Below, piece by piece: positions 33,807 to 46,035 of a DNA stretch of 64,000 bases (position 1 is the first letter of the stretch; each line of letters begins with the position of its first letter). The DNA comes from Schmidtea polychroa. Lineage: Eukaryota. Both the position numbers and the translations under genes were made by a program. The stretch spans positions 18,540,001-18,604,000 of the forward strand of contig CM097885.1 in assembly GCA_044892525.1 (NCBI GenBank), read 5' to 3'. Under the pieces are notes generated by a model. That model saw only the letters and a program-made list of their open reading frames with translations. It searched no databases and was not told where the DNA came from.

Positions 33807-34335
33807 ATGTCGCAACCAAATTTTATGGAAAATGTTCTAAACGGAATTGTCACCGCGAATATAGTCGACAGCCTCAATTTCCTGATCAATCGAACCGAAC
33901 AAATCATTGAAGGTGAACATATCGATTATCAGCAGATGATGGAGACGGAATCCCTGGAAACCAAGAAGTATTACTTCAATAGAATATTTCAGTGTCTTTT
34001 CGATGAAGACATGAAATGGACAAGGATAATTGTAGGATTCACCTACATGAAGATAATCATTGCAAAAGGTCAACCTGATTCAGAACATTATTATCATTGG
34101 TCTTTAGAAGTAAGATTTCTTTTATAATCTATATTTTAATAATATTCATTTCTAGATAATCAAGTCCAAGTTTACCCCATGGATAGAAGCCAATGGCGGA
34201 TGGGGTGTATTAAATAAACTGGCCTGCAATTTTAAAGAAACTGATGAAATCAAAAGAAAAATGAAAAACTATATAAAACTTACAACTGGAGTTGTTATAA
34301 TGTATATTTTCTGTAGATATATGAATAAAAATTAA
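33807..34335 (+). CDS. Bcl-2-family protein (B), join(33807..34109,34156..34335), 160 aa
   Basis: BH1-like LFDEDMKWTRIIVGF; BH2-like PWIEANGGW after a 46-bp GT-AG intron; C-terminal tail anchor TGVVIMYIFCR. Confidence 0.82.
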
Positions 34336-34530
34336 TGTTTTTAATAGTATATTTAAATGAAAATAATTCAATTTTAAAATTTATTAACACACTGGGTAAA
34401 GGTCATAAAGGTAACTAACAAAACTTTAACATATTATTATTATTACAATGTATAAAAATTGTTCACAAAGTTACTGTTAAAAATAATCAAGACAATAAAA
34501 TCAATACATTTATTAAATAATTTAAACACA

Positions 34531-37500
34531 TCATCGAAAATAATCATGTCCAAAATAATTATCATCTGCTGGATCATGGAAATCATCTGTATCATGGAAA
34601 TCATCTGTATCATCTGCTGAGATAGCTTCCGTTGAATCTATAAATATATCGGTGTCACCGCCCCTATAATGGCCATATGCCAAACTTTGATTTTTATCCA
34701 CCCAATTTCGTTTATCATCTCTACACGTCAAGGCTCTTTTATTATTTTTAATACTAAAAAGTTGGTGATTTTTTGACGTTATTCTAAACTGAGGGACTGT
34801 GTATATTTTATCATTTAAATAACAATCTAGATACGACTGATGTGTTAGTCCAGTATCTTTCATACTTATCCCCTTAGCCTTCATACTTTCCTCATCACCC
34901 ATCAAGCTGTAACATTTAGGTCTCAAGAACACCCAATCTTTATATAATAACCCTTTATTCTCGTCTTTGAATTTGCCAATGACAGAATCAAGGTTCCTAC
35001 TATATAAAGGATGATTTGGGTCATAATTCGAAGTATCTAATAATTGATCTCTAATCATCGCAGGTAAAAGAATGTCAAGACTACAATGTTTAATTTCCAA
35101 GAAGAAGGAATCTGTGTCTCCAGCAACGATATTAATTTCGCAGTTGAATTCGTCGCGATATTTTTGCAACTCTTCATACTGCAGCTGGTACATCCTGAGT
35201 TTGGATAAATCAAGTACGGTTTGACCAATGTAACTAGGTCTATTCAAACACACTATGTCCTTCCTCAATAAAACCGAAATCAAGTCATCATCGATTTTCG
35301 TGGATTTACGAAAAGTCGGTTTCGAACAGAATGTTAATAATCTCTGTGAAGAATTACACAGACGTAAATTAATACGTTTTTTAAGATTTTCAACAGTCTT
35401 GCCGTAAAGACTGTTGTTTAATAATTTATAAAAATTTTTATCGAGTTTATTTGTCGACGCTGCTCGTAACGCCGTATTTGTGTTAATATAATTTTTGAAA
35501 ATTTTATCTTGTTTAAATTTAATTGCTCTATGTGTTTTTGATATTTTAACACCTAATTTAATAAATATTTGTAGAAGCCTCCAATGAAGAACGTAGTTCC
35601 TCTTGGGGCTATGTGTAAGCAACAGCTTCTCTATTTTCGAACCCGGTACACACATCTTTTCAGCGGCAACGGGAAGATCGTCCAGTTTGTCGTGAATTGA
35701 CGTCGGTATTTCTAAATCCACTTCTATGGTATAACCATAATCAAGCAGATCTAAATCTACCGTTGTGCATTCAACAATTATATTATTTAATAAATTATCA
35801 TCAGTAACCCATTCAAAGTCACTGCAAGGTAATGGTTGACTTAAAGCCCAACCGTATAAATTATTTATATCTATGTAAAGCAAAGCGGTATCCGGGTCTG
35901 TTTTTACATAATGTTTATTTACAAAAGTTAGTCCGCCACGGATACCGCCCTCGAAAAAGTTATACATCTCCATATCGGTGAGGAGCTCAATTGGAGAGTT
36001 TAAAGTTAATAAGGCTGAATTCCAAGACATACCTGGAATCCCTAAGAAATTTAATGGCTCTAGTCGGTTATGAGCAATGGACTTAGCTCTAAATTGCTGG
36101 AAAAAATCGGCTAAAAGGAAAACATCAAGTTTTAAATAAACCATCATGTAATCGAAAAGTGAAGTACATGAAGTTTCAGCCCAAATTCGCTGAGCTGTCT
36201 CATATTCAGCAGGAGTCACATCTTTCCAAATAGGTGGTAACTGATGAGTGTTATGTAAAACCTCTAATGAAGTTGCGACATCATAAGGAAAAATTCCCTT
36301 TGCAGTTATTATTGTACCCTGAAATTCTGATTCGGTCAAGGGTAAAGATGATAAAGTTTTGACAGCATTATTTAAAGACTCGCTGACAAATTGATAAGAG
36401 TCTATAAATTTAACAGTTAATGAGTCAATCCTAGCAAAAAGACTAAGGAATTTCTCGCTGGTTAAAGGAATACAACTAATATTCCATGAATGATATTTTG
36501 AAAGGCCAAATTTCAAGATATGATGCAGATCATAACCCTTTAAATTATGAAATACTACAGGAAGGGTATGTCTAATTTGCCTCGACAGATTACAAGTTGT
36601 ACAAGCGGCACCAAGATATAGACCGGTAAAATGATCATGGTCCCTAACTGGACTAACTAAAGGCTTATTGCACAAATAACATGATGTGCTGTTTTCAAAC
36701 ATTAATTGTTGCTCATCTGTAATTATCATTTTCTTTTGATAATTTTTATAATAATAAGGAGTTACAATATATTTCCCTATCATTTCAATTTCAGTAAGAA
36801 ATTGATCGACACAATCTAAACCGGTGAACGACTTATAAATTTTTACGCCTGTGAAATTATTAATAAAAAGCATACCGGCAGAAATAGGCAGATGACGTTG
36901 AAAGTAGCGAGTGTCTTTAGGTAAGATAGCCTCAAAGTCAGCGTAAATAACAAAGGGAGGAGTAACTGTTTTACTCCAATCAGTAAATTCTAAATATTTA
37001 TTTTTAGGCAATGTGTACAAGGTAGTACCAAGCTGATTTTTATCGCAAAGACCCTTATGTCTATTAAAAGTGTCATCATTCCTAAAACCGTTTAAACATC
37101 TAGGGCACCACTGACTACAAATCCTAACAGGAGTGATTGAACTATTCCTACAATTAAGAAATCTATTTAGGTCTGTGATTCCAAGATAATGATAATTATC
37201 ATTCTTTTCGATTAATAATAAATTGATAGGTATGGCTCCTACTATCTTACTCCTATATATTATATCAATAAATGGATGTTTCATAACTGCATCTTCATCG
37301 GAAATGTCAATCAAAGCCTTTTCGTTATAAGTAAGAACATTAATACTATAACCCGGATTTTGTTGTTCAAATTTACTTATATTTGATAGTTTCATCGGCA
37401 TATCATTAGGATCAAATTTAATTTCAGAAAGATTGTAGGAATTAGGGCGATTTCTATATTGCCTATTTATACAGTCATATTTAATAATTGACAAGAAACT

Positions 37501-44945: not shown

Positions 44946-45409
44946 CTAAATATTGATGTACTACTATTCGCAGCAATATTGTTAGAAATTGGTAACGTTG
45001 AATTGATTTTCAGATATTCTATTGATCCTTTGATTGTTTGAATTTCTCTTAATAATAATTCAATCTTTTTTAACAAATAATCATGCTTCTTATCAATAAT
45101 CTTCATATTCTTTTTATTTTCAGTAATAGAGTTATTGAAAACCTCAATATGATCAATCAATTTAATTTTTATATTTTGTATATATTCAAATGTTAGTTCA
45201 TAACTGTTTTCTAAATTCTCCAATCTTTGAGATATTCTTTTTCCTGGATGCTTTGACCATTTTGGTTTATCGAGAATATATAAAATATCCATCAACTTGG
45301 CTGTATTCGGACAAACACATATTGATTTATTAAAAGACTCCACCGTTATTGTTGTATTGTGTGAGCACACACTCGTTATAATAATTAGCAATATGAATAG
45401 AGTTTTCAT
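44909..45409 (-). CDS. Predicted secreted/GPI-anchored coiled-coil glycoprotein (C)
   Basis: Signal peptide MKTLFILLIIITSVCS; N-x-S/T sites; heptad-rich core; AANSS followed by hydrophobic C-terminus IFSLPLLILHYFIV. Confidence 0.65.
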   Translation of the reverse strand: MKTLFILLIIITSVCSHNTTITVESFNKSICVCPNTAKLMDILYILDKPKWSKHPGKRISQRLENLENSYELTFEYIQNIKIKLIDHIEVFNNSITENKKNMKIIDKKHDYLLKKIELLLREIQTIKGSIEYLKINSTLPISNNIAANSSTSIFSLPLLILHYFIV

Positions 45410-45514
45410 GGTGTATCAAATCAAAACCTTTCTTTTACATTTATAGTCTATCAACCAATCAAAATCATCCGGTATTAGTATAAATAAAACATCATATTTT
45501 AAATTATTGTAAAA

Positions 45515-46035
45515 ATGTCTCAATTTATGGAAAATCTTTTAAGAGAACTCGTCAACAGGAATATTATGGAAAGCCTATGTTTCCTGGTCGATCGGACCGA
45601 AAAGATTATAGAAGGTAATCACATTGATTATGACGATGTGATCAATTCTGATTGTCTCGAAACCAAAAAATTCTATTTTAATAGAATTTTTAACTGTCTA
45701 TGCGACGATCAGATGAAGTGGACCCGAATACTAGTAGGGTTCGCTTATATGAAAATAATAATCCAAAGAAGTCTATGGGACTCAGAGCACTATTATCAGT
45801 GGTCTCAAGAAGTAATACTTTTATAATTTATATTTTATTAATATTTATTTTCTAGATAATCAAGTCAAAGTTTCAACCATGGATTGAAGCCAATGGCGGA
45901 TGGGGAGTACTCAATCAACTCGCCAGAAATGCAAAAGAAATAGACGATCAGAAAAGAAAATTTAAAAACTATGTAAAACTTGCAACAGGTGTTGCTATTT
46001 TGTATATTTTAACCAGATTTTTAAATAAAAATTAA
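45515..46035 (+). CDS. Bcl-2-family protein (C), join(45515..45811,45856..46035), 158 aa
   Basis: MKWTRILVGFAY; PWIEANGGW; tail anchor ATGVAILYILTR; same intron position as in B. Confidence 0.82.

Follow-up and report, generated by a model that had tools for sequence, protein, structure and literature searches.

Spliced Bcl-2-family genes in two nested Polintons of Schmidtea polychroa, with the planarian gene bcl2-1 as their closest host match

Adenovirus E1B-19K and the Bcl-2 proteins of herpesviruses and poxviruses (vBcl-2) block apoptosis. In the Polintons of animals (also called Mavericks or adintoviruses), homologues of Bcl2 and IAP have been reported by Starrett et al. (2021, PMC8502044, excerpt; "excerpt" marks here and below a source represented by part of its content), in one sentence of section 3.2 and as labels near the Astyanax and Steinernema maps of Supplementary Fig. 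S2. Here we analyse a 64,000-nucleotide stretch of the planarian Schmidtea polychroa (assembly GCA_044892525.1, contig CM097885.1, positions 18,540,001 to 18,604,000 of the forward strand), which we call the window and in whose coordinates features are given. Two nested Polintons, elements B and C, each carry a small two-exon gene of the Bcl-2 type in this window. A first-pass annotation had described these genes as spliced and hidden from the track of open reading frames (ORFs), and had proposed that the elements suppress host cell death "as real viruses do".

Like the window genes, the adintovirus Bcl2 is accessory cargo in an animal Polinton whose other genes include PolB, integrase, ATPase, protease and capsid. 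The excerpt of PMC8502044, however, names neither a donor gene nor an intron or function for it, whereas the window gene is spliced, can be traced to the host gene bcl2-1 and belongs to a set of more than 1,100 copies. The main text of that paper does not contain "splic", "planarian" or "Schmidtea", and the portion of its supplement used here has no match to Schmidtea, Dugesia, Girardia or planaria. The intact vertebrate Mavericks of Barreat and Katzourakis (2021, PMC8097293, excerpt) share with elements B and C the terminal repeats, the 6-bp target duplication and the core gene set, but no introns were seen in the genes of those intact elements, and "bcl" does not occur in the main-text excerpt. 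Maverick expansion in planarian genomes has been described in a 2026 preprint (excerpt), in which Bcl-2 is unmentioned. The viral Bcl-2 proteins (E1B-19K and those of herpesviruses, poxviruses, African swine fever virus and iridoviruses; PMC7022251 and PMC11209288, excerpts) are likewise small Bcl-2-fold cargo of nuclear double-stranded DNA elements with the same proposed job, and PMC11209288 has no mention of Polintons or adintoviruses in its excerpt. No sign of shared descent with them is seen, the best viral structure match being an isopod iridovirus Bcl-2 at E 0.22, with E1B-19K at E 1.1. The likeness to E1B-19K and to the herpesvirus and poxvirus proteins would be one of function, and the Polinton gene looks like an independent capture from a flatworm host.

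Both genes lie on the + strand. Gene B consists of exon 1 (33807–34109; 101 codons covering the part with helices 1–6 and the BH1 sequence KWTRI), a 46-nt phase 0 intron (34110–34155; GTAAGA..TTCTAG, GT..AG ends) and exon 2 (34156–34335; 59 codons and a stop, with the BH2 sequence WIEANGGW, a linker and a predicted tail anchor). Gene C consists of exon 1 (45515–45811; 99 codons, BH1 KWTRI), a 44-nt phase 0 intron known from DNA evidence (45812–45855; GTAATA..TTCTAG, GT..AG ends) and exon 2 (45856–46035; 59 codons and a stop, with BH2 and a predicted tail anchor). The two introns fall at the same codon boundary and the spliced products have 160 aa (B) and 158 aa (C), as the first-pass annotation had it. 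It had also pointed to motifs kept despite many residue differences, and the two proteins, with 68% identity across 158 codons, indeed both have KWTRI, WIEANGGW and a hydrophobic segment at the C-terminus with basic residues after it. Left unspliced, both reading frames end within the intron and give ORFs of 106 aa (B) and 103 aa (C); exon 1 is thus visible as an ordinary ORF of 103–106 aa, and it is exon 2 alone that was hidden. Relative to exon 1, exon 2 lies in frame +1 in B and +2 in C, which fits an intron and not a fixed frameshift. Of 83 gene models from at least seven families, 77 were called by script as having an intron at that same boundary, with lengths of 41, 43, 44, 45, 46, 48, 51 and 98 nt (the 98-nt variant contains an AT run) and in all three frames. 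Of the other six models, two represent the host gene, three are damaged copies that have a GT donor, and in one copy the donor is changed. The intron has 46 nt at 29/29 B-type loci and 44 nt at 29/29 other C-type loci. A programmed frameshift or read-through is ruled out, since the gap takes all three lengths modulo 3 across the families.

The two-exon, spliced gene is a real feature. In the genome (781 Mb in four large contigs), the two exon ends separated by GT-N40..42-AG give 1,150 matches, and the same exon ends with any gap of 44–46 nt give 1,164, so that 1,150 of the 1,164 keep GT..AG. Contigs from two of four runs, X1 (depth 46) and X2 (depth 18), contain a joint 34109/34156 that skips exactly 34110–34155 with its GT..AG. 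Both runs are RNA by guess and come from one shared study, none of the runs found with the sequence being registered as RNA; run X7 is without any contig over the region. This is the junction that the first-pass annotation had put forward as a check. A genomic intronless copy was considered as the origin of the joint and rejected: the search for an intronless B/C gene (exon ends with a gap of 0–6 nt) across the genome gave 0 matches, which makes a DNA source of the joint unlikely. The ends of the intron, its removal in contigs and its presence in DNA agree with a spliceosomal GT-AG intron for the B type, and for the C type the evidence comes from DNA.

Several observations weigh against extending the joint to the window locus itself. 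Run X3 covers the B region without the joint, X1 also has contigs running through the intron, and the junction contig of X2 differs from element B upstream of 34071, so that the X2 joint stems from another copy. Moreover, with over 1,000 copies in the genome, the contigs of the runs are not assignable to the window locus. The B-type splice joint is therefore shown at the level of the family, not for the loci of the window. Protein collections contain no natural spliced full-length Polinton protein; they hold unspliced calls of 103–112 aa, and none was seen among the 11 inspected of 47 matches. As a separate observation, an X2 contig over 33700–33807 ends in 15 A, which may mark a transcript of some copy that stops just short of the ATG, or else a run of A in the genome.

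The membership of both genes in the Bcl-2 family is supported by profile comparisons of the exons and their relatives, by motif, and by the predicted fold of an intronless relative. The window exons were scanned separately and match no Pfam family but PF00452 (cut-off 31.4 bits), in the adjoining profile parts 6–65 and 86–100. B exon 1 gives E 0.0012 and 19.8 bits over profile positions 6–65, C exon 1 E 0.01 over 12–66 and C exon 2 E 0.34 over 86–100, all below the cut-off, and B exon 2 has no Pfam match. Relatives with an in-frame intron (L046–L051, 68–82% identity) reach 33.4–34.5 bits, above the cut-off even with the intron read through. The intronless relative P0008 (144 aa, from a sister Polinton family) reaches 32.7 bits and is also above the cut-off, as is the host gene. 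In the profile search suggested by the first-pass annotation, every window exon taken alone thus stayed below the cut-off, and relatives passed it. By sequence, P0008 matches Bcl-xL with E 1.7e-4, and its predicted model (pLDDT 70) matches Bcl-xL with probability 1.00, TM 0.54 and E 1.2e-3. All ten of the ten best named Atlas matches belong to the Bcl-2 family or clan, the Bcl-2 clusters standing at 0.91–0.92, with a recognition value under the Atlas threshold. The BH2 motif W-x-x-x-x-GGW is present as WIEANGGW in both proteins. The C-terminal stretch, which aligns to the host tail and lies three residues from the end, has a Kyte-Doolittle value (17-aa window) of 1.29 in B and 1.62 in C. For the model of B exon 1 (pLDDT 64), VIA rows include BOK (Z 5.9, rmsd 4.5, 101 aligned) and vaccinia A49 (Z 5.6, rmsd 4.7, 93 aligned). 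Designed PPR proteins topped the exon-1 profile search and were set aside as summed weak repeats.

Other results speak against this assignment. The window exons alone remain under the Pfam cut-off, and the B exon 1 model has no match at E<=0.001, its best Foldseek row being a schistosome BCL-2 at E 0.77. The top VIA rows of the same model are helical repeats at Z 7.1, above BOK and A49, and the hydrophobicity of the two tails is moderate. The glycine of the BH1 motif NWGR is absent, with KWTR in B and C and WSR/WSK in the sister families, a loss that may inactivate or alter the groove for BH3 (PMC8998228). However, bcl2-1 is also without the NWGR glycine, so that KWTR is no argument against family membership or a pro-survival function.

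In sequence comparisons, bcl2-1 is the closest host match of the Polinton Bcl-2 gene. The Schmidtea mediterranea Bcl2-like protein ACW83059.1 (P0010) is listed as bcl2-1, FJ807655.1, in row 38 of supplementary file 2 of PMC4993586 (excerpt). The genome locus G000:C1:268544056-268547579 is 90% identical to it and is the only high-identity genome match among the best 150 candidates. This host orthologue is single-copy and has no Polinton genes in 20 kb; its second exon lies ~3 kb beyond a GT donor directly after GGW. Among 11 subjects, bcl2-1 was the best match for 9/9 Polinton queries. Exon 2 of gene B aligns gap-free over 56 residues to residues 127–182 of bcl2-1 (E 2e-09), and exon 2 of gene C aligns gap-free to the same residues (E 1e-10); the alignments cross the GGW exon boundary of the host and continue through the host tail. 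The window genes and bcl2-1 have in common an RWSR-type BH1, a FEWS/YHWS helix, PW-x-x-x-NGGW and a gap-free tail of equal length. On the other hand, bcl2-1 (ACW83059.1, C9WPR4, FJ807655.1) has 184 aa, a longer N-terminal loop and 23–29% identity to the window exons, and the host orthologue has a ~3 kb intron after GGW where the Polinton genes have none. Two caveats apply to the comparison with bcl2-1. It is the only full-length protein among the 11 subjects, which favours it for exon 2, and exon 1 is only 23–25% identical to it, which leaves room for a changed function. The RWSR of bcl2-1 itself suggests that the missing BH1 glycine predates the capture.

Inhibition of bcl2-1 has been reported to cause a rapid rise of systemic cell death and lysis (PMC6970515, excerpt) and total lysis (PMC4993586, excerpt). 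With an orthologue of this pro-survival gene, itself with a glycine-less BH1, as the nearest host gene, the anti-apoptotic reading is stronger than in the first-pass annotation. We think it probable that the spliced gene was captured and derives from bcl2-1, and that its product is mitochondrial and holds back Bak/Bax-type killers for the element, a function suggested by its descent from bcl2-1. Transcription by host Pol II would start at a CCAAT/TATA-like promoter just inside the element end, and the host spliceosome would remove the short intron. The protein would then be held in the outer membrane of mitochondria by its C-terminal tail and may there bind the BH3 of pro-death relatives and restrain host Bak/Bax-type killers. 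The element would benefit from a cell that survives during copying and integration, when free linear DNA and integration breaks may otherwise trigger death. The killer BH3 motif of the Bax/Bak group is LxxxGD. At the matching helix no such motif was found, the sequences being LNFLINRTE (B) and LCFLVDRTE (C) with no Gly-Asp, which counts for the pro-survival reading. For planarians, PMC7022251 (excerpt) cites a death pathway that runs through mitochondria and involves Bak and Bcl-2. Of the first-pass interpretation, the spliced gene, the Bcl-2 family, the Polinton context and purifying selection are supported; to act "as real viruses do" the elements would have to pass through a replicating phase, and none was observed.

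Viral Bcl-2 proteins that target autophagy have been described (PMC7022251, excerpt), and the Bcl-2 fold of the Polinton protein might in the same manner damp autophagy or innate signalling instead of sequestering Bak/Bax. About 75% of residues differ from bcl2-1, and a Thr stands in the usual place of the BH1 Gly, a kind of change that PMC8998228 ties to altered function. On the other side, pro-survival bcl2-1 has the same kind of BH1, and selection has preserved the tail as well as both BH1 and BH2, and we regard such a non-canonical role as unlikely.

The route by which the gene reached the elements bears on the bcl2-1 reading. The exon boundary at GGW is highly conserved (PMC8998228, section 2.2), and in the five host genes inspected a GT donor directly follows GGW. 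In the Polinton gene the coding sequence continues across GGW and the intron lies 16 codons upstream, at a site where bcl2-1 has none, and a sister Polinton family, for which a full element was found, carries the intronless version (P0008). With the host intron missing and a new one 16 codons upstream, the simplest history is capture from spliced host mRNA with a later gain, and it is likely, from these gene structures, that the intron was gained inside one element lineage. Tree 1 joins the intronless families and the host gene (96/97) and places B, C, D, E and F together (100/98). What detracts from this history is that the grouping of all Polinton genes with bcl2-1 has a support of 35/11 in tree 1 and, with four other rows, 88/97 in tree 2 (exon-1-equivalent region only, without Burro and five host rows), none of these values being starred, and that the trees do not separate one capture from two (p-AU 0.20 and 0.35). 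The intron might instead have been inherited from an unseen host paralogue or lost by the intronless family. The genome searches score the best 150 candidates, so that a paralogue with a small exon could be missed, and the trees allow two captures. Yet bcl2-1 reads straight through the Polinton intron site, as do the host exons L031, L038, L043, L044 and L045, and an inherited structure should also have kept the GGW intron, which the element gene is without; we consider this origin rather improbable.

Purifying selection was the subject of another check in the first-pass annotation, and it is borne out between families. For B versus C, pS is 0.53 and pN 0.19, giving a dN/dS of 0.23 (Fisher p 6.5e-11; 0.15 in exon 1 and 0.43 in exon 2) by a simple counting method applied exon by exon to AT-rich DNA. 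Among six families, dN/dS is 0.10–0.43 in 14 of 15 pairs, and one pair is saturated. Each exon 1 has 150 matches at 95–100% identity among the best 150 scored of ~2,380 candidates, and the gene has more than 1,100 copies in the genome. Stops in exon 1 are found in 3/150 and 1/150 copies among the best-scoring matches of the two exon-1 queries.

As to the window loci, the integrase of B is interrupted and element C is partly deleted, so that the window copies may be silent passengers; the selection seen between families lies in the past. The gene as a whole might be a present-day passenger as well, selected in ancestral active elements and now carried near an element end that is often copied or duplicated. 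Duplication of the gene within terminal inverted repeats (1.4–4.4 kb) is indeed frequent and extends to deleted elements, and element A of the window is without it while the two elements with it are damaged. However, at least seven families keep the exons, frame and splice sites, stops in exon 1 are few, and spliced contigs exist, and for the family we hold this to be improbable; passenger status can apply to the two window loci without touching function at the family level.

Least probable of all is a decoy or dominant-negative form of bcl2-1 that promotes death or lysis late and releases particles: the elements encode capsid, protease and packaging genes, and against solved structures the exon-1 profile scores BAK fragments better than Bcl-xL (E 1e-4 versus ~0.07), but these matches to BAK are weak and come from the BH1 region, no killer BH3 motif is present, descent is from a pro-survival gene, and the host-type promoter words would point to early expression.

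These promoter words lie upstream of both genes, at 33651–33806 (+) for gene B, with the CCAAT-like word AACCAATCA and the TATA-like word GTATAAAT ~30 nt before the ATG, and at 45354–45514 (+) for gene C. The words, which we take to be CCAAT and TATA motifs, are kept in families B, C, D, E and G, and the upstream region of gene B is likely a host Pol II promoter. The two upstream regions (95% identical, 147/155 aligned bases) and introns (39/43) are more alike than the synonymous sites of exon 1 (pS 0.65); strong constraint, chance in AT-rich DNA or a recent promoter exchange between families are possible causes.

Elements B and C are Polintons: they have inverted repeats with AG..CT ends, a 6-bp target duplication, an rve integrase, an A32-like ATPase and an adenain protease, of which the ATPase and protease matches are above the Pfam cut-off and the rve matches just under it. 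Element B (32948–61784; ends AGTAG..CTACT, target duplication GTCATG) has ~15 kb without the nested element C and is collinear with an uninterrupted copy at G000:C3:137160001-137180000. Its left terminal inverted repeat (32948–33591) has its partner at 61231–61784, with 97% identity between 33202–33591 and 61611–61231 and 89% between 32973–33160 and 61729–61558. On the − strand, B has a putative B-family DNA polymerase ORF (34531–38622, 1,363 aa) with polymerase-like motifs seen by eye. This ORF has no PF03175, Pfam, PHROG or PDB polymerase match, and the polymerase is likely of the divergent Beta class (Starrett et al., PMC8502044, excerpt). Also on the − strand are an adenain-type protease frame (39853–40200; PF00770, E 2.3e-06), the likely major capsid (407 aa), a small ORF (120 aa) and a penton-like ORF (355 aa, labelled from gene order) at 40265–42907, and a packaging ATPase (58186–58824) 97% identical to that of C. 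The likely capsid of B has a 65%-identical paralogue in element A, for which alone a weak DJR-like match was obtained (E 0.0046). The integrase of B is split into a C-terminal part (42856–43587, −) and an N-terminal part (57257–57616; rve E 5.6e-07) beyond element C.

Element C (43588–57256; AGTAG..CTACT, target duplication TCCATC) is nested in this integrase. Through an internal deletion, what is left of its capsid ORF is fused to the second, C-terminal half of the polymerase. At 48420–50739 (+) it has a packaging ATPase (Pox_A32, E 3.6e-07), a small ORF and an integrase-chromodomain ORF (rve E 1e-05, Chromo E 0.0013). A 163-aa ORF at 55530–56021 (+) ends in a C3HC4 RING (E 7e-10), presumably of the IAP type, and may have a short upstream exon and intron near 55420–55490; its N-terminal part was tried as a decayed Bcl-2 domain and rejected (probability 0.9%, no Atlas match). 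The terminal repeats of C (43690–44420 and 56530–57150) contain arrays of TGAGTCA and TCAAGGTCA words, which we assume to match AP-1 and SF-1/ERR-type nuclear receptor sites, and the ends of B contain TGACGTCA (CRE-like) palindromes at ~32985–33005 and 61700–61750. From these words, it is possible that the element ends are stress- or hormone-responsive.

A third Polinton, element A (~19348–32870), has the same core genes without a Bcl-2 gene. All three elements contain a TBP-like gene of 145–154 aa (31245–31691, 47883–48320 and 58929–59393; PF00352, E 5e-13 to 2e-15). Elsewhere in the window, a 196-aa ORF at 241–831 (−) joins a Ras/Rab-like piece to a proteasome-subunit-like piece and is likely a chimeric retrocopy. 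The Bcl-2 end is found at both element ends at four genome loci (G000:C3:137160001-137180000, C1:224753001-224773000, C1:1345001-1365000 and C1:203689001-203709000), with inverted repeats of 1.4, 4.4, 3.6 and 3.1 kb, respectively, and 97–99.6% identity. This duplication is partly at the expense of core genes and, we assume, resembles the terminal rearrangements of linear DNA viruses.

Other Bcl-2-like genes were seen beside those of the Polintons. Seven near-identical canonical NWGR Bcl-2-family exons without the GGW intron (L031–L037) lie within 0.9 Mb at G000:C4:89948841-90831822. The P0012 cluster (13 members, on public-assembly contigs of up to 13.7 kb) encodes a 161-aa intronless bcl2-1-like protein with TWGR. 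In the window's genome the P0012 family has no match beyond bcl2-1, and no element context was found for its contigs; it may represent a further capture by a mobile element, in a different species. In planarians, a Bcl-2-like module also occurs in a second class of giant mobile elements, the Burro giant LTR retrotransposons, for which a BCL2-like motif has been reported (PMC6431247, excerpt). The Burro-type module differs from the Polinton gene in being part of a polyprotein (frames of up to ~3,090 aa), in having no intron and in its BH1 type VNRDKV. Its tblastn comparison with the Polinton gene gave no match at E 1e-4, and it is likely a separate capture. Bcl-2-like domains in very long ORFs (up to ~3,090 aa) occur at L161–L167, L173–L175 and many genome matches, the Burro label being given from ORF size and PMC6431247 (excerpt).

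In the literature searched (Repbase and subscription journals lying outside its scope), we found neither a description of a spliced Bcl-2 gene in a Polinton nor one of its descent from bcl2-1. The Bcl2 cargo of adintoviruses is already in print, which limits the surprise; what is new is a traced donor of reported function, a likely gained intron and the more than 1,100 copies. A much wider proposal, which we put forward as a speculation with the odds well against it, is that bcl2-1, as the one gene indispensable to the host, was captured and remade (the host intron dropped, a new intron and a host-type promoter acquired, the gene often doubled in terminal repeats), tilts stem-cell competition and drives Maverick expansion, and together with Burro represents a repeated capture of the death switch. 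If true, a cell with an awakened, multiplying element would resist death and be passed on, in an animal in which soma and germ line alike are supplied by dividing stem cells.

The host gene with its ancestral intron, the intronless element family and the at least seven families with one probably new intron would form a natural series for intron gain. The Polinton accessory gene is tied to a named host gene whose loss reportedly kills the animal, in planarians, where RNA interference and stem-cell assays are routine. The question of whether animal Polintons manipulate the host cell like viruses or ride along as transposons is thereby made testable.

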